Shown piece after piece: positions 7,101 through 39,218 of a DNA stretch of 64,000 nt. Made by a program: the position numbers and the translations under genes. Positions within the stretch are counted from its first letter, which is position 1, and the number at the start of each line of letters is the position of its first letter. The notes below the pieces were generated by a model. It was given only the letters and a program-made list of their open reading frames with translations, was not told the DNA's origin and made no database searches. This DNA comes from a virus (lineage: Duplodnaviria > Caudoviricetes), in IMG/VR virus record IMGVR_UViG_3300033172_000001, positions 2,157 to 66,156 of that record. One strand, 5' to 3'.

Positions 7101-8547
7101 CATAGAAGCACAAGAACTGTCAAGAGTAGAAGACCTTATATTTAATGGATTGATCAACAATGACAATTATTTTTATAAGGTCTTTCCTTTCCTCAAAGAA
7201 GAATATTTTGACGATAAAGAAAAGGTAATATTCAAAATATTCAAATTTCATCATGATAAGTTTGATAAAAAAGCAACACCAGAAATTCTTGAGGTTTATC
7301 TTGACAAATACAGAAATACCAACGAAACACTCTTTTCTGCTGCAACTGAATTTTTCTTTAAGATTAAACCAGAACGACCAACTTTAGATTATGATTGGTT
7401 GACAGATGCAACGGAAGAATATTGTCAAGACAAAGCTTTATATAATGCGCTTGCAAAAGCAGTTTCAATTTATGATAAAGAAACAGACGAACAACCGAAA
7501 TCAAGCATTCCTGAAATTCTCCAAGAGGCTCTTGGAGTAACATTTGATAATGACAATGGTCTTGATTATTTTGAGGACGCACAAAAAAGATTTGAACGTC
7601 TTCATTTAAAATATGATAAAGTTCCTTTTTTGTGTGACGTTTTAAATGAAATTACTGATGGTGGATTTGAACTAAAGACGGTTAACTGTTTTTTGTCGGC
7701 AACAAACGTGGGCAAATCCGCCATGATGACCTGGCTTTCAACCGAGTATTCATTACAAGGAAAGAAGGTTCTTTACTTGTCAATGGAAATGGCAGAAGAA
7801 AAGATTGCTCAACGAATGGATGCTTGTTTGTTCAATCGTACTTTGTCACAAGTTAAGAATATGGGCAAAGATGAATTTCTTGGTAGTGTTCATAATTTGA
7901 CAAAAAAGGGAATGGGCAAGATCATAGTGAAAGAGTTCCCAACATCAACCGTTCATATGGGGCACGTTGAAGCGTATTTGCGGGAGTTAAAATTAAAAAA
8001 GAATTTTGAACCCGATGTGGTAATGCTTGACTATTTGAATATTTGTTTATCAAAGCGCGTTTCTTTGAATAAAGGAACATATATGTTCGTCAAATCAATT
8101 GCGGAAGAATTTCGTGGTTTAGCAGTGAAAAACAATTTTTGTGGCATTACAGCTGTTCAGGGGGACCGTTCAACCATTGAGTCTTCTGATATTGGATTGC
8201 AGAATGTTGGCGAGTCAAAGGGTATCAATGATACAGTGGATTTCATGCTTGGTCTCATGGCTCCTGAAGAAATAAAAGCGCAGGGTATCATGCTCTGCAA
8301 ACAACTCAAAAGTCGTTATGGAGACGTAAACAGAAAGAAGCGATTCGCTTTGATATTTGATTCTGAAAAAATGAAGTTTGAAGACAGTTCCGATTTAAAA
8401 ATAGAAGGATTTAATGCTCCTAAAGGAGATAAGACCAAAGATGTCCCTTTATTTGATAAAAGCACAAACAACAGAATTCTTGAAGAGAGACCAGATATAA
8501 CAGGAGATGCAACAAAAGCACTTCTTTCAGGAGGGATAAAATGGTAA
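7093..8547 (+). CDS. 41: DnaB-like replicative helicase gp41
   Basis: SATNVGKS Walker A, SMEMAEEKIAQRMDA, IVKEFPT, LDYLNI, SIAEEFRGLA, QLKSRYGD. Confidence 0.93.
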   Translation: MGDIEAQELSRVEDLIFNGLINNDNYFYKVFPFLKEEYFDDKEKVIFKIFKFHHDKFDKKATPEILEVYLDKYRNTNETLFSAATEFFFKIKPERPTLDYDWLTDATEEYCQDKALYNALAKAVSIYDKETDEQPKSSIPEILQEALGVTFDNDNGLDYFEDAQKRFERLHLKYDKVPFLCDVLNEITDGGFELKTVNCFLSATNVGKSAMMTWLSTEYSLQGKKVLYLSMEMAEEKIAQRMDACLFNRTLSQVKNMGKDEFLGSVHNLTKKGMGKIIVKEFPTSTVHMGHVEAYLRELKLKKNFEPDVVMLDYLNICLSKRVSLNKGTYMFVKSIAEEFRGLAVKNNFCGITAVQGDRSTIESSDIGLQNVGESKGINDTVDFMLGLMAPEEIKAQGIMLCKQLKSRYGDVNRKKRFALIFDSEKMKFEDSSDLKIEGFNAPKGDKTKDVPLFDKSTNNRILEERPDITGDATKALLSGGIKW

Positions 8548-27576: not shown

Positions 27577-30036
27577 GTGGAAACAGAAGATTATTTTAAG
27601 AACAACCAAATGGCGATTGATATTTTTAATGCAAAATATGCTTTTGATAAAGAGAACGGAGAAAAAGAAAACGTACTAGAGGTGTTTACTCGGGTAGCAC
27701 GAAATCTTGCTGTTTATGAGTCTGAGCCCGAGAAATGGGAAAAAATCTGGATTGATGATATGATGGAAGGATGGTACCGCCCCGGTGGTTCCATCCTTTC
27801 GGGTGTTGGTAGCAAATCTACCATTTCCTTAGCCAATTGCACGACTATACCCCTTTCTGAGGACTCTATTCAAGGCATTAATAAATGTGTTTCTGATATG
27901 ATGATCTGTGCTGCGAAACGTCAGGGACTTGGTGTTGATGTTTCTGTTTTGCGTCCTAAAGGAGCAAAAGTAAATAATGCAGCAAACGAATCCACAGGAG
28001 CAATTCCGTGGATGGAATATCTTCAGTCAATGGGTAATTATGTCGGACAAGCAGGCAGGCGTCCGGCGGTTCTGCTTTCTATCAAGTGTAATCATCCTGA
28101 TGTGATTGAATTTATTAATTCAAAGACTGATTTGAATCTTATTCATAATGCAAACATTTCTGTTCAGATTACAGACGCTTTTATGGAAGCCGTCATTGAA
28201 GACAATGATTGGGAATTGCATTTTGAAACCAAACACGAAATCATTTCCAAGATTGTCCGAGCAAAAGATATTTTCAGTCTTATTTCTGAATCTGCTCATG
28301 TTAGCGCGGAACCGGGTGTTCAGTTCATTGATCTTATGCGGAAAGGATCTATGATCCACCAAATTTATCTTGCTACTGGTGATAAACGTTTTTGTGTGGT
28401 CAGTACCAACGCCTGCAGCGAAAAACCGCTTGCCCCTTATGGAATTTGTCTTTTGGGTTCAATCAACATGGGTATGTTCCCAAATAATCCTATGGAATAT
28501 GGTCCAATTCTATATCAGAAGACACAAAATCTAATCCGTCTTTTGGATAATGCTATTCAATACGAAATTGACAATGACCGTTATGGTGTACCCGAACAGC
28601 GTGATCTTGCAAAACTGACAAGAGAGGTTGGTATGGGTATTACCAATCTCCACCAGTGGTTCTTGAATGCAGATATTCAGTATGATTCAAAAGAAGCAAT
28701 CAAAGCAATTTCTGAATTCATGGAATATTATGCAAAGTTTGCTTTTCAAGCATCCCAAGAACTTGCAGAAGAAAAAGGTCCAGCGGGAGCATACGAATTA
28801 GGAATCACTGCAAAGGATCTGATGGGATCAAGTTTCTTTAGTAATGTCATTCATTCTCTTGAACTTGAAAACGATCTTGATGAAGTTCTCCCGCTTCGGA
28901 ACTTGGCACTTTTATCCATCGCGCCCACGGGTTCGCTTTCTATGACATTTCCTGAAGGGTGCATTTCTTCTGGTCTTGAACCCATTTTTGCTCCTGCTTA
29001 TTGGCGAAAGACAAGAGCAGTATCTAAAAATGAATGGGAATATTATTTTGTCATGCCATCTGGAGTAAAAGATTATCTCATGTCAAAGATACCTAAAGAT
29101 TCTTCTGATTTTTCTTTCCTTGAAACATTGCCAGAATCAATCAAAGATGAATCTGGAGAAATTGGAAAACATGCAATGAAAATTCTTAAAACCTATCTTG
29201 GCGAAGGATTCTTTAAGGCTGCTCATGAAATTGATCCATTCATGAAACTTGAAATGATGGCAGGAATGTATAAGTTTATTGATGCTGCTGCCTCAGTGAC
29301 GTATAACTTGCCCGAGGATTGTACGGTTGAAACAATTGAATCTCTGTACATGAAAGCGTGGGAACAAGGAGTGAGGGCTGTTTCTGTGTATCGTGAAGGT
29401 TCCCGTGAAGGAATTCTTGTTTTCACTCCGCCGGATCAGCAAAAAGAAAAAAGAGTGACGTATTGTGATGAACGACCAAGCACAATACATTTCAATTGTG
29501 CGCCGAAACGCCCGAAAGATGTTTCTTGCGACATTCACCACGCTAAAGTTGTAGGAAAGGATTGGATTGTTCTAGTCGGAATTCATGAAGGATTTCCGTA
29601 TGAAATTTTTGCAGGAGAAGCGAACAGGGAAGAAATGTACGTTCCTCATTCTGCAAAACAAGGAATTCTTCGCAAAGACGGACGAAAATATTCACTAATT
29701 GTTCCTATCAAAAAATCTGATGTGGAATACAAGGATATTGCAAATCTCTTTATGAATGAACGTTATCGGTCCACCACAAGACTTATTTCTCTTGCGTTGC
29801 GTCATGGTGTGCGTCCTGCATTTATAATTGATCAGTTGAAGAAAGCAGACGAAGGAATCACCGAATTTTCTTCTGTTGTGACCCGTGTTCTTGGCAAATA
29901 CATGAAGGCGCTTGAATTTGAATATCTAAATAAAAAAGACGGTGATTCTTGTCCATTCTGTGGGAGTACAGAATGGATATATCAAGGATCATGTAAAATT
30001 TGCGCCGCGTGTTCAAAAGGGTCAAAGTGTGACTGA
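27577..30036 (+). CDS. nrdJ: Class II (B12-dependent) ribonucleotide reductase
   Basis: PGGSIL, ANCT, TNACSE, CLLGSIN, REVGMG, SIAPTG, YREGSR, C-terminal NrdJb-like and Zn-ribbon domains; no nrdB nearby. Confidence 0.88.
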   Translation: METEDYFKNNQMAIDIFNAKYAFDKENGEKENVLEVFTRVARNLAVYESEPEKWEKIWIDDMMEGWYRPGGSILSGVGSKSTISLANCTTIPLSEDSIQGINKCVSDMMICAAKRQGLGVDVSVLRPKGAKVNNAANESTGAIPWMEYLQSMGNYVGQAGRRPAVLLSIKCNHPDVIEFINSKTDLNLIHNANISVQITDAFMEAVIEDNDWELHFETKHEIISKIVRAKDIFSLISESAHVSAEPGVQFIDLMRKGSMIHQIYLATGDKRFCVVSTNACSEKPLAPYGICLLGSINMGMFPNNPMEYGPILYQKTQNLIRLLDNAIQYEIDNDRYGVPEQRDLAKLTREVGMGITNLHQWFLNADIQYDSKEAIKAISEFMEYYAKFAFQASQELAEEKGPAGAYELGITAKDLMGSSFFSNVIHSLELENDLDEVLPLRNLALLSIAPTGSLSMTFPEGCISSGLEPIFAPAYWRKTRAVSKNEWEYYFVMPSGVKDYLMSKIPKDSSDFSFLETLPESIKDESGEIGKHAMKILKTYLGEGFFKAAHEIDPFMKLEMMAGMYKFIDAAASVTYNLPEDCTVETIESLYMKAWEQGVRAVSVYREGSREGILVFTPPDQQKEKRVTYCDERPSTIHFNCAPKRPKDVSCDIHHAKVVGKDWIVLVGIHEGFPYEIFAGEANREEMYVPHSAKQGILRKDGRKYSLIVPIKKSDVEYKDIANLFMNERYRSTTRLISLALRHGVRPAFIIDQLKKADEGITEFSSVVTRVLGKYMKALEFEYLNKKDGDSCPFCGSTEWIYQGSCKICAACSKGSKCD

Positions 30037-30062
30037 CGGGAACACCAGAAGAAAAAAGAAAT

Positions 30063-30221
30063 ATGGCTAAAAAAATAGAAATCTCATGCATTGAATGTAA
30101 TGCTGATTTTGAGGTTCTTCATGAAATGAGTTCAACGTATTCTCCTAAATTCTGTTGCTTTTGTGGAGAAGAAATAGTAGATGATGATTATATGTATTGC
30201 GAAGATGAAGACGAATATTGA
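30063..30221 (+). CDS. Small zinc-ribbon protein
   Basis: CIECNADF...PKFCCFCG, acidic tail; not in the ORF track. Confidence 0.6.
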   Translation: MAKKIEISCIECNADFEVLHEMSSTYSPKFCCFCGEEIVDDDYMYCEDEDEY

Positions 30222-30335
30222 TTCATAAAAAGGAATCTTATGAACAAAAAACTTTTTTATTCTTGGATCTGTGTTATTGTTTTCTATGGGTTCAACGGTT
30301 TGCAATTATTAATCACTAATTAATCTGGAGGTTTT

Positions 30336-30566
30336 ATGTATCGTGTATTTGAGCATTTTCCGAATGATGCCGAGTTTGTGTGTCCTATTTGCAAGAAAAA
30401 CGATGATTCTTCGTGTTGGCTCATGCCAATTGACGGAACTCAGGAAGACAACATTGAACAAGCCACCCCTGTGCATGTGAAGTGTACGGGGGAGGAACTA
30501 ATCGGAAAAATGAGGTTTAACCAAAAAATGAAAATTATTTATGCTTTTGTTGAAGAAAGTTCTTGA
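30336..30566 (+). CDS. Hypothetical protein
   Basis: GGAGG RBS; CPIC...HVKC. Confidence 0.55.
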   Translation: MYRVFEHFPNDAEFVCPICKKNDDSSCWLMPIDGTQEDNIEQATPVHVKCTGEELIGKMRFNQKMKIIYAFVEESS

Positions 30567-30641
30567 AATTATATTCAAGGAGAGTTAAAATATATATGTA
30601 AGTTGATTGAATGACTTTTAATTCTCCTTGAAGAGGTTTTT

Positions 30642-31985
30642 ATGATGAATCTGCCTGAAAAAATCAAAAATATCTGGTCAGTGCTTGAAAGTGCTGGCCA
30701 TCCCACGTTTCTTGTCGGTGGTGCTGTTCGTGATCATTTTCTTGGTCATGAACCACACGATTTTGATCTTGCGACAAAGGCCAAGCCCGAAGAAATCATT
30801 TCACTTGCAAAGAAGAATTTTCCCGAGGCAGATATCGATTTTGTTGGTGCTACATTCGGGGTTGTTCTGATTGACGGCATTGAAATTGCTACGTTCCGCG
30901 GTGATCGTTACAATGGCAACGGCAACGAAAAGGATGTTTCAATTTCGTTTGTTGACACGATTGAAGAAGACCTTTCCCGTAGAGATTTCACCTGGAACGC
31001 AATGGCGATTAGTTCTATTGGAGAAGTCATTGACCCTTTCAACGGTTATGAAGACCTTGAAAACGGCATAATTCGTTTTGTTGGTGATCCTAATGTTCGG
31101 ATTGCAGAAGACGCCAACAGGATTATTCGTCTTTGCCGATTTGTTGCAAAGAACGATTTTGAAATTAATTTTGAAACGTTTAAGGCTGTTCGGGATAATC
31201 TTCATCTTGTTTCAAGCATTGCACCTGAAAGGATCAAGATGGAAATCATGAAGGCCATGGAATTGAAAAACGCTTCCGCGTTTTGGGGTGCGTTACTGAC
31301 AGTCGGCGTTCTTGAAATGATTCTTCCTGAAATGGCAGAATCATGGAATCACACTGGCGGAAAGTTTCACACTGAAACTGTTTGGGACCACATGATGCTT
31401 GCTGGTGATCATGTTTCTACTAAGTTTCCAATGGTCAAGTTAGCTGCTTATTTACATGATATCGGAAAGCCGCTTGCATATAAGATTGCGGGTGATGGGA
31501 GTTTTTCCGGTCATGAAGTTCTTGGCAAGGATATCATCGTTAGCCGTCTCAGGGACCTTCGCTTCAGTAATGACGAGATTTCCCAGATTGCTGGTCTGTG
31601 TAATTTCCACATGCGACAAATGTTTGATCTTTCTCCGAAGGCGCGCCGAAAGTTAAAGAAGGATCTGAATGAAGCAAACCTTTCATGGAAGGATTTGACT
31701 CGGATTCGTATTGCTGACTCAAAAGCAAACATTGCAAAAGATGCTCTTGCACTTCATGAAATCAAGAACATTGTTTGTGGTTGCACGATGGTTGAAGAGG
31801 TTGTTTTTAGCACCCATTCACTGGCTGTTTCAGGCAAGGATCTTATTCGTGAATGGGAACTTTCTCCGGGTCCAATTGTCGGTAAGTTGCAGAAGTTTTT
31901 GCTTTCTTTTTCAATTGAAGAAGGAAACAATGATCCTGATTGTCTTCTTTTGAAGAGCAAAGACTTTTTTCTCGATAATGATTAA
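30642..31985 (+). CDS. cca: CCA-adding / tRNA nucleotidyltransferase with HD domain
   Basis: LVGGAVRD, HDFDLAT, EIATFR, EDLSRRDFTWNAMA, EDANRIIR, ERI, HDIGKP. Confidence 0.88.
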   Translation: MMNLPEKIKNIWSVLESAGHPTFLVGGAVRDHFLGHEPHDFDLATKAKPEEIISLAKKNFPEADIDFVGATFGVVLIDGIEIATFRGDRYNGNGNEKDVSISFVDTIEEDLSRRDFTWNAMAISSIGEVIDPFNGYEDLENGIIRFVGDPNVRIAEDANRIIRLCRFVAKNDFEINFETFKAVRDNLHLVSSIAPERIKMEIMKAMELKNASAFWGALLTVGVLEMILPEMAESWNHTGGKFHTETVWDHMMLAGDHVSTKFPMVKLAAYLHDIGKPLAYKIAGDGSFSGHEVLGKDIIVSRLRDLRFSNDEISQIAGLCNFHMRQMFDLSPKARRKLKKDLNEANLSWKDLTRIRIADSKANIAKDALALHEIKNIVCGCTMVEEVVFSTHSLAVSGKDLIREWELSPGPIVGKLQKFLLSFSIEEGNNDPDCLLLKSKDFFLDND

Positions 31986-32076
31986 AAAGTCTTTACAACC
32001 ACCCATAACTATGTTTAGATTATTTCGTAAAGCGTGATACGCGATAAGATAATTCAAATTTTAAGGAGCAAAAACA

Positions 32077-32238
32077 ATGGTAATACCTCTTTTTAAGAAC
32101 AGTCCTCACTCAGATATGCCAGGAATGTATAGGTTTATTGATGCTACAGCCTCAGTGACGTATAACTTGCCCGAGGATTGTGCGGTTGAAACAATTGAAT
32201 CTCTGTGTGTAATTAAAAATTCAAAAAAAAACAAATAG
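32077..32238 (+). CDS. 53-aa ORF containing an 87-bp copy of internal nrdJ sequence
   Basis: AAGGAG RBS; 32120-32206 matches 29261-29347 at 83/87 nt, in the same reading frame. Confidence 0.6.
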   Translation: MVIPLFKNSPHSDMPGMYRFIDATASVTYNLPEDCAVETIESLCVIKNSKKNK

Positions 32239-32248
32239 GAGAATTATT

Positions 32249-32581
32249 ATGGCAACTCCCCGCACTCCCAAAGTTCCGTATCCAGTAAAAAACGATTTCA
32301 AGACCTTTTATATCTACAAAGAAGGAAAGTGTGTTTTCAAAGGCAACAAACAGGAACTTTTTAAATCTCCATTTAGTGAAAATTGCCATTCTATTGCTGC
32401 AATTCGTGATAAATTTATCATGGAAGAAGTTGTTGATACGGATGGATTTAAGAAAGTAATGAAGGCATATAACGATGAACAGAAAGAAATTCACGAGGCG
32501 CTGCAAAACGGTGAAACGGTCACCTTTGACTTCGAAGGTATGAGCCAGTTCGTGTTATACATGTTGGAACAACGGAGCTAG
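32249..32581 (+). CDS. Hypothetical protein
   Basis: AGGAG RBS. Confidence 0.55.
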   Translation: MATPRTPKVPYPVKNDFKTFYIYKEGKCVFKGNKQELFKSPFSENCHSIAAIRDKFIMEEVVDTDGFKKVMKAYNDEQKEIHEALQNGETVTFDFEGMSQFVLYMLEQRS

Positions 32582-32610
32582 GAAGAATTACATGGAAAAG
32601 GAGTCTGAAA

Positions 32611-32853
32611 ATGTATCAAATACCCTTGTATGGCCCGGAAACACTACCGACAAACGGTCAGCAGATATTGTTGTTTTTGCATGACGGAACAGTTTGTAGT
32701 GCGTGGTTTTCTAATGTTGCTCCAGAGAACGACGCGAAAGACGACGGCGAGTATGATTGGATATGTTGCGAAGATAGGTTCTTGATAGATGGTCACGACA
32801 CGCACCTTATTCGGGGTTGGCTACCGTTATGCTATTTTGAGGGGTTTGTATGA
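32611..32853 (+). CDS. Hypothetical protein
   Basis: AAGGAG RBS. Confidence 0.55.
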   Translation: MYQIPLYGPETLPTNGQQILLFLHDGTVCSAWFSNVAPENDAKDDGEYDWICCEDRFLIDGHDTHLIRGWLPLCYFEGFV

Positions 32854-32982
32854 TAACTTCCTGTAACCACAGCGAGAATATTATTTGCGGTTCTTGCCTG
32901 ATGAAAAATCACCAAGAGAAGCAGGTTGCTGAAAATTTGTTGCGCGGCGAAATTCTAATTGAAGAGATAAGGGGGGGACAAT

Positions 32983-33327
32983 ATGAGTGACAACAAAACA
33001 GTCTACAGAGGAAAAGATTACCCGGTGCATAGCAACGCACCTTGGAGGATTGAAGGTGAGAATGTGAAAACAGCCATTTCTTCTGGATGCAAGCGCATAG
33101 CGATGGTGGACTATTTTGATTGTGGCACCGGCGATCCACGTAGCATTTCCAAGGAAGAACACGAGGCAAACGCCCGCTTGATAGCCGCCGCTCCTGAAAT
33201 GCTGGAAGTGTTGCGCTGGCTTGATAATGCGTATGATTGTAGAGAGGCATACAATGGGAATGTAGCATTTTCCCATGAGGATTTGGAAAAAGTGCGCCGG
33301 GCAATCAAGCTGGCGATGGAAGGCTAA
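32983..33327 (+). CDS. Cassette-like hypothetical protein (ANARLIAAAPE motif)
   Basis: Its stop TAA is part of the TAAC of the downstream attC-like site. Confidence 0.65.
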   Translation: MSDNKTVYRGKDYPVHSNAPWRIEGENVKTAISSGCKRIAMVDYFDCGTGDPRSISKEEHEANARLIAAAPEMLEVLRWLDNAYDCREAYNGNVAFSHEDLEKVRRAIKLAMEG

Positions 33328-33375
33328 CCCAGAGCGCAGCGGTGCGTAGCATCCGCCTGACGTGAGTTGTTATCT
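33322..33375 (-). mobile_element. attC-like site A (inverted relative to ORFs)
   Basis: Minus strand AGATAAC-AACTCA-CG[T]CAG[G]CGG...CCGCTGCG-CTCTGG-GTTAGCC, with two extrahelical bases. Confidence 0.7.
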
Positions 33376-33391
33376 TTAATGGAAAAACCAA

Positions 33392-33637
33392 ATGAAAACG
33401 CCAAAAGAAAAGTACATGAACGACCCTGAATATAACCGCTTAGTGAACATGCTGGAAAACCTAATTGCGCAGGCTCAATTTACGCCATCAGAGCTGAGAG
33501 AGGCCTGCGTTTTGGCAAGCATCAATTACGAAATGCGGAATATTCGCCACTTCAATATTTCCAATATTCACCCCAAACTTGAAGATGCCCTAAGAACGCT
33601 TGACGAATTCGTTAGCAGCGGCAGGCCAAGAAGATAA
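33392..33637 (+). CDS. Cassette hypothetical protein
   Basis: Bounded by complementary cores GTTATCT and AGATAAC. Confidence 0.65.
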   Translation: MKTPKEKYMNDPEYNRLVNMLENLIAQAQFTPSELREACVLASINYEMRNIRHFNISNIHPKLEDALRTLDEFVSSGRPRR

Positions 33638-33664
33638 CGTTTAAGCTCAGGCGCCTTGTTATGG
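33632..33664 (-). mobile_element. Internally deleted attC-like site B
   Basis: Minus strand CCATAAC-AAGGC-GCCTGAGC-TTAAAC-GTTATCT; both R boxes and spacers kept, central stem lost. Confidence 0.6.
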
Positions 33665-33680
33665 CGCGGGAGGTAATCAT

Positions 33681-33884
33681 ATGGAAAGCAGAACCATTAA
33701 AAGACCACTTTCTAACGAGAAGGTGTATTCAGAGAAGGACGTTGTGTTGTACCTCGAAAGGTTCCTAAAAGGGTCTCTTTGCGGAGATTGTTTTAATGGC
33801 TCACCTTGGGGCGAAAAAGAAAACGAAAGGCTCTATTTTGCTCTTTCCGAAATTGACTACGGAAATTTCAAGGTAGCACCATAA
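33681..33884 (+). CDS. Cassette hypothetical protein
   Basis: Bounded by GTTATGG and CCATAAC; GGAGG RBS. Confidence 0.6.
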   Translation: MESRTIKRPLSNEKVYSEKDVVLYLERFLKGSLCGDCFNGSPWGEKENERLYFALSEIDYGNFKVAP

Positions 33885-33910
33885 CGTGGAGGCGGAAACG
33901 GAGAAAGCAC

Positions 33911-34112
33911 ATGGACAAATACCTGTACCGAATAACGACGAAGCGGACGAATGTGTGGAGCACGAAAAAACCGAAGCCTGTTTATTTCGTTGCCGAAAGC
34001 AAGGAGGCGGCGTGGAAATGGGCAACGGAACACCTTCAAAGCGGCCTATCGGTTGCGAAAGTGACGCGATTGGCTTGTCCAGGCGGGCGGCCATGTTTTT
34101 GCTGGTCTCTAA
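33911..34112 (+). pseudogene. Cassette gene with a probable +1 frameshift near 34075
   Basis: The shifted frame ends VQAGGHVFAGL* at the TAA of the attC TAAC (34110-34112); the unshifted frame reads through the site. Confidence 0.45.
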
Positions 34113-34180
34113 CGGCTGATTTAACCGGCGCGTTAGCGCGCCCGAGCGAGGAACGAGCGATGTTGAACGAATTGTTATAC
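34107..34180 (-). mobile_element. attC-like site D (inverted)
   Basis: Minus strand GTATAAC-AATTC-GTT[C]AACA...GGTTAAA-TCAGCC-GTTAGAG. Confidence 0.75.
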
Positions 34181-34402
34181 GTGCTGGCGCGAAACTACGA
34201 AGACGCTAGAAATTACGCTAGAAATTACGCCTACAAAAAAGGCTATCACTACTCACGAATGGTTAATGTTGATCGACGCGAGAAACTGATGGGGTTGCGC
34301 GATGTAAAGTTGCATGTGGTTCCTGGCGCCGAGGATCGGAAGAATTATGCAGAGCTAATGCATGAAGCGAAGATTCGGTGCTTTGAGATCGTGGACGTAT
34401 AA
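34160..34402 (+). CDS. Cassette hypothetical protein (start lies inside the attC)
   Basis: GAGGA then ATG 34160; bounded by GTTATAC and GTATAAC. Confidence 0.55.
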   Translation: MLNELLYVLARNYEDARNYARNYAYKKGYHYSRMVNVDRREKLMGLRDVKLHVVPGAEDRKNYAELMHEAKIRCFEIVDV

Positions 34403-34420
34403 CACTGGAGGTAAACGGCG

Positions 34421-34732
34421 ATGAATGAAGCGAAGCGTAATGAAGAGTCCAGTTTGACCGAGTTGTTAGCTGGGCAAATGATGACTGTGTTAATGACAGA
34501 GAAAGACGACATCATACGAGAAGCCATTAACAGAAAAATCGGTACGGATTGGACGCTAGAAGATTTGAAGGGGCGTTGCCATGTAACCAAGTCGCCCAAC
34601 ACTTACGAAGTGTTTTATCTGGATGGCAAGGCAATTGTTAAATTTGACGATCCACATTTAGAGCAAGATTTTAACGAGCTACCAAAGCATGTTGTTAGCG
34701 CACATATTAAGTACGCGTTTATTGACAGCTAA
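34421..34732 (+). CDS. Cassette hypothetical protein
   Basis: GGAGG RBS; stop is in AGCTAAC. Confidence 0.6.
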   Translation: MNEAKRNEESSLTELLAGQMMTVLMTEKDDIIREAINRKIGTDWTLEDLKGRCHVTKSPNTYEVFYLDGKAIVKFDDPHLEQDFNELPKHVVSAHIKYAFIDS

Positions 34733-34793
34733 CGCTTGAGTTCACGCGGGCTGGCCGCAGTTTGGCCAGCCCGCGTGAAACGAATTGTTATGC
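34727..34793 (-). mobile_element. attC-like site F (inverted, best preserved)
   Basis: Minus strand GCATAAC-AATTC-GTT[T]CACG-CGGGCTGGCC-loop-GGCCAGCCCG-CGTGAAC-TCAAGC-GTTAGCT. Confidence 0.85.
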
Positions 34794-34812
34794 GATTTTT
34801 CAAGGAGATGAC

Positions 34813-35106
34813 ATGAATTGTCCAAAATGCGGAAGCGAAAACGTATCAACTGAGAGACGTATTGACGGAATGAAAACGTGCCTCGACTGCGGTTATAAAT
34901 GGCGCAATGTAGCACAGGCAGGACACGTAGTAACAAGTTGCCACGAAGATAGAACATACAAGCGATATCTCTGTTGGGTCTGCGGAGAAATCCACAAATG
35001 CACTCCGTCTTCTGATTTTTACACCACAGACGCCCACGGGGAGGTGCTTGTCTGCGAAAGATGTTTTCACGAATACCTCGGGCATCGGCTGAACGCTGAA
35101 AAGTGA
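34813..35106 (+). CDS. Cassette zinc-ribbon protein
   Basis: MNCPKCGS...CLDCG...CWVCG...CERC; bounded by GTTATGC and GCATAAC. Confidence 0.6.
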   Translation: MNCPKCGSENVSTERRIDGMKTCLDCGYKWRNVAQAGHVVTSCHEDRTYKRYLCWVCGEIHKCTPSSDFYTTDAHGEVLVCERCFHEYLGHRLNAEK

Positions 35107-35121
35107 GTAGCGGATATTAAC

Positions 35122-35165
35122 GCATAACCGCAAGGGTAAGCGGCCCGCCCCTTAGCCTGTTATTC
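35122..35165 (-). mobile_element. Degenerate attC-like site G
   Basis: GCATAAC-CGCAAG-GGTAAGCGG...GTTATTC on the plus strand. Confidence 0.5.
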
Positions 35166-35198
35166 GTCAAGATACTGACGGCGAACTGGAGGAAGAAA

Positions 35199-35402
35199 AT
35201 GAAAACCGACTACCAAAGATTTCGGGTGTATAGCATTAAAGGTTGTATGGGTGAATTTTACTCATACGGATTTGACGTAGAATCATCACGTAATATTTTT
35301 GCGTTGATGAAAAAAGAAAAAGTAAAAATATTATACCAAAGACCAATAACAAAAATATGCGATGATAATGGAACTATCGTTTACGAAAACGAAGAAGCCT
35401 AA
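35199..35402 (+). CDS. Hypothetical protein
   Basis: GGAGG RBS; ends in GCCTAAC followed by an attC-like half site. Confidence 0.55.
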   Translation: MKTDYQRFRVYSIKGCMGEFYSYGFDVESSRNIFALMKKEKVKILYQRPITKICDDNGTIVYENEEA

Positions 35403-35457
35403 CAACTGCTTCAACTGGACAGTCGAATCTAATGGAATTTGAAAAGGAGTCTGAAAA

Positions 35458-36459
35458 ATGAAAAAGATTGATTTGCCTACTGGTAAAATTGTAATTGACG
35501 AGTATTCCAAAGGCGAGCTTGAAACGTTGTCCATTGGTGATTATGGTAAAGACAAGAACATTCGGGCACAATTTCTTGGATTTAACGAAGAAATTAACGG
35601 TGTTGCAAATGGACCAGTAAAGTCTTTGTCTGAAAAATGGGTCATGACTCTTTCCACTCAATACGGCTGTCCTATGAAGTGTCGTTTTTGTGACGTTCCT
35701 AACGTCAAGTTTGGTGGAAACGCTACTGTTTCTGATCTTTATAATCAATTTGTGAATGCCCGAAAATGTTATCCCAGAGTAAAATACACTGATCGGCTGA
35801 ACATTCATTTTGCACGAATGGGAGAACCGACTTTTAATCATGAAAACGTTTTTAAATTTGCTGAATCTCTTATCAGCGAAAAGTTTTATATTCAGTATAC
35901 TCTTGATTTCAGGATTGAAACCATTCACCCCGTTTTCACGACGATGCTTCCCAAAGTGCTGAAAAAGAATAATCTTGAAAATATCTTGGCTCAATGGTGT
36001 ACCATTAAAAACGAAACATTTAATGGCCAGGCAGGGCTTCAATTGTCAATCAACACGACAGACGAAGAAAAGAGAAATTACATGTTCTATAATCTTTCCC
36101 ATTCTCTCAAAGATATTTCGCTTATGGCAAGATATCTTCCGCCTCCTGTTGGTCGGAAATACTGTTTGAATTTTGCAATTACTTCAAGTAATGATATTGA
36201 TGCAAACAAACTTGCCGAGCTATTTGATCCTATGAGTTGGATGGTAAAAATCACTCCGATACATAACAATGACGCTTGTAAAGAGAACGGCTTCAAGACA
36301 GAAAACGGATACTGTTCTTATGAAGTTTACCGGGAAGCAGAAAACAACTTGATTGAAGCTGGTTTTGATGTTATTGTCTTTGTTCCGTCTATGGATGAAG
36401 AAAATGGCACTATCACTTGTGGGAATGCAATTCTTGGAGGATCAAAAATCAAAATATAA
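35458..36459 (+). CDS. RlmN/Cfr-like radical SAM protein
   Basis: LSTQYGCPMKCRFCD (CxxxCxxC), ARMGEP, QLSIN, C-terminal ITCG. Confidence 0.75.
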   Translation: MKKIDLPTGKIVIDEYSKGELETLSIGDYGKDKNIRAQFLGFNEEINGVANGPVKSLSEKWVMTLSTQYGCPMKCRFCDVPNVKFGGNATVSDLYNQFVNARKCYPRVKYTDRLNIHFARMGEPTFNHENVFKFAESLISEKFYIQYTLDFRIETIHPVFTTMLPKVLKKNNLENILAQWCTIKNETFNGQAGLQLSINTTDEEKRNYMFYNLSHSLKDISLMARYLPPPVGRKYCLNFAITSSNDIDANKLAELFDPMSWMVKITPIHNNDACKENGFKTENGYCSYEVYREAENNLIEAGFDVIVFVPSMDEENGTITCGNAILGGSKIKI

Positions 36460-36462
36460 GTG

Positions 36463-36506
36463 TTGACTCAAGGCGAAAAATCGTTTATTCTGTTTGTGAA
36501 AGTTAA
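36463..36506 (+). promoter_or_regulatory. Early promoter, family copy 4
   Basis: TTGACT-17-TATTCT-5-TGAAAGTTAA. Confidence 0.8.
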
Positions 36507-36537
36507 GTGATGCTTTAAAAACAAACAAACAAATGAG

Positions 36538-37134
36538 GTGACTATGAAGATTTTCAGTGACGACATGAAAGCCATTCTTGATCGTGCCGACGAAGTTAAA
36601 TCAAAATTGAAAGATTTTGGTTTTGCTGAAATTGACATTGATTTTCGCATTGAAGTTTTGAAGCGTGGTTTTGCTGGTCTTGCGTATACAGGCGAAGCGG
36701 GCTACATGTACGTTGATGAACGAAAACCTCGTCTCGGTACCGAATACCGCGAACGCCCGGTTGTTAAAATTTCCTCTGACTACCTCAAAGAATACCGCGA
36801 AGAAATTCTTCATCGGACTGTTGCCCATGAAATTTGTCATTGTTATGTTCATCATTATTATCCTCGGGCAAAGCAGGCTCATGGCCCTGAGTTTCGTCGG
36901 ATGATGCGTCTCCTGGGGCTTGACGGCTCTACTTATCACAGCATGAAGCTGAAAAACGGTCCTAAGAAGCGAGTATATACGAAAAAGCGTTATGGGTACA
37001 AAAACCCGGTTTCTGGTGAAATGTATTGGATCACGAAAGCAAAGCACGAAAAAGCCATGAAGGGTTTGACTACTCTTTACGCAAAAGGCGGAGTAGCTGT
37101 TATATTCACCGGCGAAGTTAAGGAAGTCAAATAA
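36538..37134 (+). CDS. SprT-like zinc metalloprotease
   Basis: TVAHEICH...HGPEFRRMM...H. Confidence 0.8.
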   Translation: MTMKIFSDDMKAILDRADEVKSKLKDFGFAEIDIDFRIEVLKRGFAGLAYTGEAGYMYVDERKPRLGTEYRERPVVKISSDYLKEYREEILHRTVAHEICHCYVHHYYPRAKQAHGPEFRRMMRLLGLDGSTYHSMKLKNGPKKRVYTKKRYGYKNPVSGEMYWITKAKHEKAMKGLTTLYAKGGVAVIFTGEVKEVK

Positions 37135-37146
37135 GGAGAAAATAAA

Positions 37147-37461
37147 ATGAAGAAATTTTCTGAGATGGTTGAGGCTCAAGATATACTTAATGATTTAGAG
37201 ATTTATAATCCTGCGTATGTTTATTTGATTGAATTTATTTTTAAAAACGGAACATCTAAAGAATTTTGGTGCACCGATTTTTCAATTAATGACGAATCGT
37301 ATACATGGAAAGCATTGTTTTCTAAAGAATATCTAATAAAATTTAATCCAGATGATATATCGTCTATTTGGCAAAAAGAAGTAAAACCAATATTTAAAAA
37401 ATATTATTTGGAGCATCCCAAAACTTTTGCGTGTTTCAAAGATCATTTTGAAAAAGAATGA
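37147..37461 (+). CDS. Hypothetical protein (FWCTDF family)
   Basis: Paralog of 19917-20288. Confidence 0.55.
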   Translation: MKKFSEMVEAQDILNDLEIYNPAYVYLIEFIFKNGTSKEFWCTDFSINDESYTWKALFSKEYLIKFNPDDISSIWQKEVKPIFKKYYLEHPKTFACFKDHFEKE

Positions 37462-37469
37462 GGTAAGAA

Positions 37470-37691
37470 ATGCACTTCATGCCAGCAATCGGTTCTCGTG
37501 TGATGTATGAATATCTTGATGCTTTGATCCCGTATCTTATTATTGGATACGAAGAGGATGATATTGCGATAATCAAAGATATGGACACTGGTCACGAAAC
37601 GTGGGTTATCGTTAAATTCTTCAAATATGATGGGGACCATCCGCGTGGCTATCGTACAGTTTGGAACAATAAATTAACTTTATTGGATTGA
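37470..37691 (+). CDS. Hypothetical protein
   Basis: GAGGT RBS. Confidence 0.5.
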   Translation: MHFMPAIGSRVMYEYLDALIPYLIIGYEEDDIAIIKDMDTGHETWVIVKFFKYDGDHPRGYRTVWNNKLTLLD

Positions 37692-37708
37692 GGGAGAAAA
37701 TGGCTAAC

Positions 37709-37952
37709 GTCAACTGCCCCCCAATTCAAGCCTGACGGCTTGAATTGGGGGCTTGCAAAAGCCATAGTTGATTAGCCTAAGTGTTTCGAGCACTACGTTA
37801 CGCAAGAATATATAGGCACCTACGGATGTTAATCCAAGTCTGTAGCTCTGCGGTTGGTGATTAAACAGTTCTGATGGGTAGGAACAGTGTTGTCAACATC
37901 AAACCTTGCGATAACATTGGCGATGGATTTCAACTCTGAAAGGAGACGTAAC
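37709..37952 (+). ncRNA. IscB omegaRNA scaffold
   Basis: Characteristic blocks CTACGTT, ATAGGCACC, GCTCTGCG, TTAAACAG, ACAGTG, AAACC, AACATTGGCGATGG upstream of iscB. Confidence 0.8.
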
Positions 37953-39214
37953 TTGAGAGTCTACGTACTAAACATGCGCGGGGAGCCGCTAATGCCGACT
38001 ACCCCGCGAAAAGCAAGAATATTGTTGCGTGACGGTAAGGCGGCAGTTGTAAAACGCACACCGTTCATGATTCAATTAAAATATGCAACAGGCGAAAACA
38101 AGCAGGAAATTACATTGGGTATAGATGCTGGTAGTAAAACAATTGGCTTGTCGGCATCTACGGAAGACGAAGAACTCTATTCGTCTGAGGTACAAATTAG
38201 AAGTGACATAGTAGACCTTTTATCCACAAGAAGACAGAACCGCAGGACGCGTCGCAATCGCTTGAGATATCGTCCTGCCAGATTTGACAACAGGGGAAAA
38301 GACAAAGGCTGGCTTGCACCGAGTATTCAAAATAAGATTGGTGCTCATTTGTCGGCTGTTGAAAATGCCCGTAAAATCCTACCGATTAGTAAAACCGTAG
38401 TTGAAGTGGCCTCTTTCAATATACAGAAAATTAAAAATCCTGAAATTAAGAGCAAAGACTATCAAAAGGGCGAGCAGTTAGGATTTTGGAATGTGCGGGA
38501 GTATGTGTTGTTTAGAGATGGTCATCAGTGTCACGGAAAGAAAGGCTGTAAAAACAAAATCCTTAATGTACATCATATTGAAAGCCGTAAAACAGGTGGC
38601 GATTCACCAAATAATCTTATAACGTTGTGTGAAGATTGTCATAAGGCATATCACAACGGAACACTCAAATTGAATCTAAAAAGACAGCCATCATTTCGGG
38701 ATGCAGCTTTTATGGGAATTATGCGGTGGGCATTTTATAACAAACTCAAGGAGCTATATCCAAATGTTTCGTTAACCTATGGCTATATTACTAAAAATAC
38801 ACGCATCAGAAATGATTTACCCAAAGAGCATAGGATTGATGCGCTTTGTATTGCGGGACATCCACAGGCAAAACTTGCTGATGAGTGGTATGCGATTAAG
38901 AATTTTCGCAGACATAACCGGCAAATCCATAAGGCAAACTTTTTAAAAGGTGGCAAGAAGAAATTGAATCAAGCTCCATACGAGGTATACGGGTTTAGAT
39001 TGTTTGACAAAGTACGATACGACGGCAAGGAATGTTTTATTTTTGGTAGAAGGAGTAGTGGGTATTTTGACTTGCGTATGTTGGATGGGGCAAAAATTCA
39101 CGCCTCAGCGATCTATAAGAAATTAACCTTGCTTGAGAAGTCAAGCGGACAAATAATTGAAAGGAGGAATGCGCATTCCTCCCCCACTTTAGAAGTAGGG
39201 GTATCCTGCGCCGG
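37709..39214 (+). mobile_element. Non-autonomous IS200/IS605-type IscB element
   Basis: Left end GTCAACTGCCCC...GGGGGCTTG...GTTGATTAGCCTAAG; right-end hairpin TCCTCCCCCAC...GTAGGGGTATCCTG; no tnpA. Confidence 0.85.
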
Positions 39215-39218
39215 ATAA
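37953..39218 (+). CDS. iscB: IscB RNA-guided endonuclease
   Basis: PLMP, RuvC-I GIDAG, R-rich bridge RRQNRRTRR, RuvC-II E, HNH (HHI...N...CEDCH), RuvC-III HRIDA; TTG start after AAGGAG. Confidence 0.93.
   Translation: MRVYVLNMRGEPLMPTTPRKARILLRDGKAAVVKRTPFMIQLKYATGENKQEITLGIDAGSKTIGLSASTEDEELYSSEVQIRSDIVDLLSTRRQNRRTRRNRLRYRPARFDNRGKDKGWLAPSIQNKIGAHLSAVENARKILPISKTVVEVASFNIQKIKNPEIKSKDYQKGEQLGFWNVREYVLFRDGHQCHGKKGCKNKILNVHHIESRKTGGDSPNNLITLCEDCHKAYHNGTLKLNLKRQPSFRDAAFMGIMRWAFYNKLKELYPNVSLTYGYITKNTRIRNDLPKEHRIDALCIAGHPQAKLADEWYAIKNFRRHNRQIHKANFLKGGKKKLNQAPYEVYGFRLFDKVRYDGKECFIFGRRSSGYFDLRMLDGAKIHASAIYKKLTLLEKSSGQIIERRNAHSSPTLEVGVSCAG

Follow-up and report, generated by a model that had tools for sequence, protein, structure and literature searches.

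Integrons are treated as bacterial devices, and the clusters of attC sites that occur in phages have, to date, been taken for stray fragments of integrons. Here, I describe an array of small genes separated by attC-like hairpins in a 64,000-nt stretch of viral DNA (hereafter the window, always meaning the whole stretch), namely positions 2157-66156 of the 66,156-bp IMG/VR virus record IMGVR_UViG_3300033172_000001 (Duplodnaviria; Caudoviricetes), which is estimated to be about 37% complete; the array occupies window positions 33322-35403 and is composed of seven single-gene units, B, C, D1, D2, E, F and G. The closest described systems are the 17 phage clusters of attC sites lacking integron integrases (CALINs) reported by Qi et al. 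2023, who found that IntI1 recombines five sites from virulent phages (PMC9892861). The window has in common with these arrays several attC sites a few hundred bases apart, small open reading frames (ORFs) between them, and a lytic phage without intI as their carrier; it differs from them in that the phage is T4-like, the array is partly degenerate, and the block that holds it is lacking in close relatives. A preliminary description of this DNA, made from the letters alone, had presented such an array as new to T4-like phages, which overstated its novelty for phages at large, as CALINs in virulent phages, including the 132-kb phage PH101, had by then been published and assayed with IntI1 (Qi et al. 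2023, PMC9892861).

PH101 is the nearest of these relatives in kind, sharing with the window both R boxes of the ATAAC/GTTAT type and the position of the array beside ribonucleotide reductase genes. The arrays of TJE1 and PH101 were called typical of bacterial arrays, and the polarity of the genes relative to the attC sites went unmentioned (Qi et al. 2023, PMC9892861). For comparison, a covariance model (R1) was built from the aadA7 site, two TJE1 sites and two PH101 sites, all assayed with IntI1, aligned as top strands with the canonical structure imposed. In PH101 (NC_029094, 75919-77987) R1 marks four sites on the plus strand, the annotated genes being on the minus strand, among them a 180-aa gene that is open only on the minus strand; in Myoviridae ctTUS972 (MW202573, 2281-3738) it marks three sites on the minus strand, with the genes on the plus strand. 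In both phages, as in the window, the attC top strand is thus opposite the annotated genes, whereas TJE1 differs from the window in having the canonical orientation. The backward layout is already present in the published arrays of PH101 and ctTUS972, where it is unremarked, and a literature search found no paper that remarks on it for phage arrays. Among the other phages named by Qi et al., jenny 12G5, H188 and 3/49 gave no match to R1, and P12002L one marginal partial match.

Two further systems invite comparison. In the Vibrio superintegron and in the integron of Vibrio phage Va_90-11-286_p16 (MK672802), as in the window, the R' of a unit complements its own R'' (GTTATGC and then GCATAAC in MK672802), cassettes are small, carry a single ORF and are of unknown function, and an attC body recurs between different genes. 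These integrons differ from the window in possessing intI, attI and Pc, with genes on the top strand, whereas the window has no integrase and its genes are on the bottom strand. Inverted cassettes do occur in chromosomal integrons, as a minority made up mostly of toxin-antitoxin pairs. The second system is native to T4-type phages: promoter-early stem-loop (PeSL) motifs are intergenic stem-loops flanking small accessory genes in a hyperplastic region, where close relatives differ by insertions, deletions and replacements, all of which holds for the window (Arbiol et al. 2010, PMC2839356; Comeau et al. 2014, PMC4122927). Yet PeSLs are conserved composites of promoter and terminator that work through homology, whereas the sites in the window carry no promoter or terminator signal, are dissimilar to each other and match attC. 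The window junctions do not show the sigma-70-type early promoter with a terminator stem-loop, conserved between copies, that characterises PeSLs; promoter-like sites number 9 against 7.4 expected and terminator-like sites 5 against 3.9 expected, which is no enrichment, and none of them stands at a junction.

The reading favoured here, with a probability of about 0.7, is that the window holds a real CALIN of some seven single-gene cassettes, lying backward, which a T4-like phage acquired as part of a mosaic block. The array consists of the following elements (core pairs are given by the positions of the two cores; the arrow marks the crossover point; RBS, ribosome-binding site):

33322-33375, minus strand: attC site S1, R' GTTAGCC and R'' AGATAAC on the minus strand (R1 17.8 bits, E 0.1).
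33328-33637, plus strand: cassette B, composed of S1 and an 81-aa gene at 33392-33637 (core pair 33369/33632; its stop codon is the TAA of AGATAA↓C).
33632-33664, minus strand: junction J2, an internally deleted attC with 19 nt between the cores (no R1 match).
33638-33884, plus strand: cassette C, with a 67-aa gene at 33681-33884 (core pair 33658/33879).
33885-34112, plus strand: cassette D1, with an ORF starting at 33911 and no R'' core (junction J3), from direct reading of the sequence and open-frame analysis.
34107-34180, minus strand: attC site S4, top strand GTATAAC AATTC GTTCAAC ... TCAGCC GTTAGAG (R1 18.8 bits, E 0.05).
34113-34402, plus strand: cassette D2, an 80-aa gene whose RBS and ATG (34160) are within S4 and which ends in GTATAA↓C (core pair 34174/34397).
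34397-34471, minus strand: attC site S5, L'' GGT[C]AAAC pairing with L' GTTTACC (R1 30.2 bits, E 5e-5).
34403-34732, plus strand: cassette E, with a 103-aa gene at 34421-34732 (core pair 34465/34727).
34727-34793, minus strand: attC site S6 (site F of the preliminary description), top strand GCATAAC AATTC GTTTCAC...GTGAAC TCAAGC GTTAGCT (R1 28.2 bits, E 1.7e-4).
34733-35127, plus strand: cassette F, coding for a putative 97-aa zinc-ribbon protein at 34813-35106 (weak Pfam zinc-ribbon matches; core pair 34787/35122).
35122-35165, minus strand: junction J7, a short attC-like site with 30 nt between the cores, from sequence and fold (no R1 match).
35128-35402, plus strand: cassette G, an AT-rich 67-aa gene at 35199-35402 (cores GTTATTC and GCCTAAC, not complementary).

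The cassette character of the units is most evident from their ends. The four perfect core pairs already quoted in the preliminary description are where it placed them (GTTATCT 33369 and AGATAAC 33632; GTTATGG 33658 and CCATAAC 33879; GTTATAC 34174 and GTATAAC 34397; GTTATGC 34787 and GCATAAC 35122), although the units they bound are not strictly consecutive, as had been claimed; a fifth perfect pair, GTTAGCT 34465 and AGCTAAC 34727, had been overlooked. These five pairs tile 1.8 kb with one ORF within each, and only three other complementary pairs of the GTTA type spaced 150-350 nt apart exist in the whole 64-kb window. In five of the seven units, therefore, the first bases complement the unit's own R'' at 7 of 7 positions, marking the G↓TT crossover, an outcome with a chance probability of about 2e-5 if only the two bases after GTTAT are treated as free. 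All six sites with two cores carry TAAC/GTTA, position 5 being mostly T rather than a purine, as in many Vibrio R' boxes. A unit runs from the C after the crossover through the attC, an RBS and the ORF to a TAA, the attC sometimes holding the RBS and start codon; the terminal TAA is found in 7/7 units and is the gene's own stop codon in 5/7. Along the plus strand the small genes follow in succession with good Shine-Dalgarno sites, and five of them, plus gene A on the left, end in TAAC. The TAA expected at the end of D1 (34110-34112) does not stand in frame, and D1 and D2 therefore read as one 163-aa ORF (33911-34402); on identical D1-D2 DNA, gene callers give either 163 aa or 77 and 80 aa.

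The anatomy of the hairpins points the same way. A scan of both strands of the 64 kb with R1 (filters off), of the kind proposed in the preliminary description, returned four matches with E of at most 0.1, namely S5, S6, S4 and S1, all in the array region and all on the minus strand, the next-best match elsewhere in the window scoring 14.9 bits. Of the positive controls outside the training set, the third TJE1 site reached 37 bits and the four sites of the Va_90-11-286_p16 integron 24-30 bits, all on the gene-sense strand; this control rests on the run with default filters, because with filters off R1 misses the 126-nt Vibrio sites, probably owing to a length limit. In an alignment of ten phage sites to R1, 93.5% of the L-stem cells are paired, 11 of 12 L-stem pairs change on both sides, and the UAAC/GUUA pairs are retained in 8-10 of the ten sites, a result biased towards R1 because the alignment was fitted to it. 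An L''/L' stem, an extrahelical base on the L'' arm and spacers of 5 and 6 nt are present at the sites, J2, J3 and J7 excepted. S6 folds into a hairpin of -24.8 kcal/mol with 27-nt arms that are 81% complementary, and its spacers AATTC and TCAAGC are, as the preliminary description had it, the ones that aadA7 attC carries on its top strand (Qi et al. 2023, Table S3, PMC9892861). The R1 scores and the covariation of the L stem support the identification of the sites, by sequence and structure, as integron-type attC; their recombination by IntI is predicted. The view that several sites are deleted holds for J2; J3 and J7 are degenerate, J7 being short. It fails for the junction at 34397, which is intact and forms the full site 34397-34471. 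A full-length counterpart of J2 exists in L111 (L numbers designate related loci and contigs), with the same AAGCT and GCGCCTT-GTTATGG ends and 28.1 bits with R1 on the minus strand. A hand-written attC scanner with fixed 5- and 6-nt spacers and a bulge-tolerant stem was also tried, and dropped: it gave no strand separation on a real Vibrio array and equal matches in non-integron DNA.

Cassettes of the array also occur in other contexts. Cassette C is found in three of them (the window, L111 and L112) with different neighbours, the similarity extending from 7 nt before GTTATGG to CCATAA↓C, and homologues of E in L113 and L114 likewise have other neighbours and start directly after TAA↓C; members of both families are thus present in different arrays, cut at TAA↓C. 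One attC body of about 50 nt (GGTAACCGGTTGCGCGGCAGTTTGCGCAATCC...) joins three gene pairs (L021:4318-4369, L028:980-1025 and L112:440-489), and L021 and L113 hold more chains of complementary cores. The GCAGTTT loop of this shared body is the loop of S6 too, the stems being different. Upstream of cassette C, L112 carries the C-terminal end of a gene resembling DNA cytosine-5 methyltransferases (L112:1-174, the ENS motif region); methyltransferases are known from phage cassettes (Qi et al. 2023, PMC9892861).

As to the enzyme, the preliminary description had noted no integrase in the window, and this extends to the whole 66-kb record, in which PF00589 (tyrosine recombinase) was not found, as well as to eight related or array-bearing viral records, L001's included, two of which are at least 98% complete. 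An Oceanospirillaceae metagenome-assembled genome that has an E homologue on a phage-like contig gave neither an integron integrase nor an R1 match. Any IntI would have to be supplied by the host or be encoded in the part of the genome that is not sequenced. As neither the record nor the eight related ones yielded a tyrosine recombinase, the array is classed as a CALIN rather than as a complete integron; intI was not found, and the search for attI and Pc was confined to the promoter scan. In the IntegronFinder definition a CALIN combines two or more attC sites within 4 kb with the lack of a neighbouring integrase, and the array corresponds to it, as judged by R1 rather than by the IntegronFinder attc_4 model: two sites with E < 1e-3 are 256 nt apart, and two more with E of at most 0.1 fall within 1.5 kb.

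The array is part of a larger block, at the borders of which are:

32595-32613, plus strand: left direct-repeat copy, GAAAAGGAGTCTG(A)AAAATG (RBS and ATG), 19/20 nt, from the junction alignment with L001, which holds a single copy; L044 and L045 are alike.
32611-33327, plus strand: overlapping genes X1 (32611-32853), X2 (32850-32990) and A (32983-33327), the leftmost unit, ending in GGCTAA↓C.
35397-35430, plus strand: truncated attC half-site, GCCTAAC AACTG CTTCAAC..., of the opposite (canonical) polarity, like the left half of L041:934-983.
35441-35460, plus strand: right direct-repeat copy, with the RBS and ATG of a radical-SAM gene, from the junction alignment with L001.

Three relatives (L001, L044 and L045; 82-96% identical across the flanks) run straight from window position 32613 to the radical-SAM gene at 35458 and lack 2.85 kb (32611-35457; missing bases 32614-35440). 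The GC content of the block is 47%, against about 35% in the backbone. Three other relatives, L041, L042 and L043, are 98.8% identical to the window from 34142 rightwards and differ in the left part, where a gene A variant and a 70-aa gene replace window 33019-34141; one breakpoint falls in gene A and the other in S4, neither of them at G↓TT, L041 keeping only the right half of S4 from 34142. The 70-aa gene (L041:2150-2460) has its own perfect TTGACA-17-TATAAT promoter and looks like a self-expressed moron inside the cassette block. Pieces of the block recur at 90-98% nucleotide identity in the unrelated phage contigs L021, L028 and L029, which are of higher GC, with breakpoints within genes; in L028, a homologue of gene A immediately precedes a copy of cassette F (89.7% identical), which has another attC in front of it. 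X1, X2 and A occur together in L028, L029 and L041 (79-97% nucleotide identity), and in L029 GCATAA↓C precedes X1; in the window, this leftmost unit has lost its own 5' core at the insertion junction. Gene order is accordingly variable among relatives, the preliminary description having held that an invariant order would tell against cassette exchange. The absence of the block in relatives, the GC contrast and the positions of the breakpoints suggest that a mosaic block brought the array into this lineage.

The chained complementary cores, together with the occurrence elsewhere of cassettes C and E cut at G↓TT, argue for an origin in which an IntI-type tyrosine recombinase would have cut and joined the cassettes at this point. 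The phage itself, at about 35% GC, would not have assembled the array; it may rather have taken up the 2.85-kb block of 47% GC from an accessory-gene pool common to higher-GC phages, with entry presumably by recombination at the short repeat in the RBS region. Within this lineage the block would since have been altered mainly by homologous or illegitimate recombination, which is usual in T4-type hyperplastic regions (PMC2839356, PMC4122927). Its genes are probably expressed now as ordinary read-through early genes, and the attC sites may still be potential substrates of a host-encoded IntI during infection.

The preliminary description went further and let the phage acquire and shuffle its cassettes through IntI. 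That is not borne out, for the block was inserted or deleted at the RBS repeat, the breakpoints fall inside genes and S4, and cutting at the crossover point is confined to the more distant occurrences of cassettes C and E. The corresponding alternative, namely that this lineage is now gaining, losing and reordering cassettes by IntI-mediated recombination between attC sites, with an enzyme that the host or another part of the genome would supply, is unlikely. It would account for the well-formed sites, for the five cassettes with perfect R''/R' complementarity and for the cutting of C and E at TAA↓C elsewhere, and IntI1 does recombine phage attC of this type (PMC9892861); yet every difference among relatives of 82-99% identity lies at the RBS repeat, within genes or midway through S4, no integrase turned up in the record or the eight related ones, and R1 finds no attC in 44 loci (494 kb) with the neighbouring radical-SAM gene. 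The attC identity of the sites and their inversion are supported; IntI shuffling within the phage is at most inferred.

Inversion of the sites relative to the genes had been claimed from the outset, and it withstands comparison. The bottom strand of the aadA7 site, TCTAAC GCTTGA...GAATT GTTAGAC, corresponds to the plus strand of S6, AGCTAAC GCTTGA...GAATT GTTATGC. The attC top strand coincides with the gene-sense strand in TJE1 and in the Vibrio integron; in the window all four R1 matches fall on the minus strand, which makes the strand of the genes the attC bottom strand. Extrahelical bases, which are located beside L'' and direct the choice of strand (Nivina et al. 2016, PMC5027507), point likewise: the three bulged bases in the fold of S1 are all on the L'' arm, that is, on the 3' arm of the plus strand, as are those of related sites in L021 and L028, and S5 has the classic pair GGT[C]AAAC / GTTTACC. 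Bulge counts based on minimum free energy are noisy for the long Vibrio and PH101 sites and were applied only to short, well-folded ones. That the genes belong to the plus strand is indicated by units B, C, D2 and E, in which the frame across the unit is open on that strand only, and, for cassette F, by the L021 homologue, open on plus only. As read from the DNA, then, the array runs backward, its coding strand carrying the attC bottom strand.

It might be objected that the polarity is canonical after all, with the plus strand as top strand, the asymmetry being noise in degenerate sites. On the plus strand the units do look textbook (TTATNN, RBS, ORF, and a stop inside RYYYAAC), and a complete attC stands after cassette C in L112. 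This is very improbable nonetheless: plus-strand matches are below about 10 bits at every site, against 18-30 bits on the minus strand, the spacers agree with the bottom strand of aadA7, and the bulges are on the 3' arm of the plus strand. Moreover, downstream of the E homologues of L113 and L114, which are 80-83% identical, stand attC sites with no relation to S6 or to each other, and the units start after TAA↓C, so that the hairpin 3' of a gene belongs to the next cassette.

Still less credible is the movement of the cassettes by a recombinase other than IntI, e.g. a phage-borne Xer-like enzyme; the failure to find IntI would be in keeping with it, but none of the array-bearing records open to search yielded a tyrosine recombinase, and the sites match classical attC recombined by IntI1, down to the aadA7 spacers. 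Least credible of all is that the hairpins are the phage's own regulatory or recombination motifs, akin to PeSLs, shuffling modules by homologous recombination and only resembling attC, since, for all that the region is early and hyperplastic, that the block came or went at a short RBS-region repeat and that PeSL-mediated swapping is established in T4-like phages (PMC2839356, PMC4122927), promoter- and terminator-like sites are neither enriched nor present at the junctions, the sites match validated attC in sequence, spacers and bulge position, chained complementary cores are no feature of PeSLs, and the junction sites, being different in sequence, offer little mutual homology.

Several points weigh against the backward CALIN favoured here. 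Only two sites score E < 1e-3, and J2, J3 and J7 are short or have no partner core. S5 overlaps conserved coding sequence, since it takes in the RBS of gene E and 17 codons from the gene's start, and the N-terminus of E is conserved in homologues; part of the S5 score may therefore stem from the protein. The other polarity is seen in the half-site at 35397-35430, in L041:934-983 (34 bits with R1 on the plus strand) and in a marginal L021 site, 7414-7472 (18.3 bits). The recent changes between close relatives avoid the crossover point. Lastly, a recombinase may lie elsewhere in the genome, as the record covers some 37% of it.

The layout acquires a possible meaning from replication. Bottom strands in attC sites fold and recombine best on the template of the lagging strand, and large stable chromosomal arrays hold them on the leading-strand template (Loot et al. 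2017, PMC5371416). In the window both the genes and a positive GC skew follow the plus strand up to about 52 kb, although in phages such a skew may stem from transcription and not from replication. If replication is co-directional with transcription, the bottom strands would be on the lagging-strand template, i.e. in the recombination-prone orientation.

On this basis a wider proposal can be made tentatively, with odds well short of even: phages may keep their own pool of backward cassettes, exchanged among unrelated phages by host integron integrases during infection. Such cassettes would have their attC 5' of the gene, the recombinogenic bottom strand as coding strand and, usually, the stop codon as their final three bases. 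The window, L021/L022, L025, L113, PH101 and ctTUS972 fit such a pool; TJE1 does not. If it existed, the reversed polarity would assign the bottom strand to the lagging-strand template, on which attC folds best (Loot 2017, PMC5371416), and backward genes would be silent after landing in a bacterial integron. Phage arrays, if systematically backward, would then constitute a distinct reservoir tuned to phage transcription and replication, and small accessory genes, possibly for host takeover or counter-defence, would have a route between unrelated phages by way of a host enzyme. Taken singly, the present array is a further member of the kind described in 2023, its all-backward layout being an unremarked variant. 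The window lends itself as a test case, with the well-formed S5 and S6, natural variants with and without the block, and cassettes in several contexts.

Concerning the carrier, PHROG matches in the window include a ribonucleotide reductase large subunit, a tRNA nucleotidyltransferase, a DnaB-like helicase, a DNA ligase and a gp5-like baseplate hub. Since a tail protein is just 23-25% identical to those of cyanophage, Vibrio and Rhizobium T4-like myoviruses, the term T4-like is valid in a broad sense only. Megablast of 32000-36500 gave no match to cultured phages, none of which is close at the DNA level, and blastn of S6 against plasmids returned chance matches only. The stretch with the array is not an assembly artefact, because contigs from other assemblies cover it, seven at 99.9-100% identity and an eighth at 98.9%. 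For the cassette proteins, Pfam and PHROG gave no family that is informative, save for gene A, a member of PF27050 (Phage_P22_Y8K6) and phrog_1273, and the weak zinc-ribbon match in F.

Outside the array, three minor features deserve mention. Rfam gave no match in the array region, and its sole match above the family gathering score in 30000-38000 is a HEARO RNA at 37709-37934 (134 bits; gathering score 83), followed by a 443-aa HNH/IscB-like ORF at 37887-39218; the two together (about 37709-39215) form a clean insertion that is not in L041 and L045, whose flanks are 90-98% identical. A search with the IscB-like protein reached at most 73% identity, with assorted anaerobes, from which the host could not be identified. 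A 91-nt direct repeat, about 94.5% identical between its copies, is found at 29257-29347 and 32116-32206, one copy within the ribonucleotide reductase large-subunit gene and the other within a 53-aa ORF 2.8 kb downstream. Finally, the ribonucleotide reductase gene of L001 contains about 960 extra bases (L001:759-1717, against window 27834-27839), a candidate intron or homing-endonuclease insertion.

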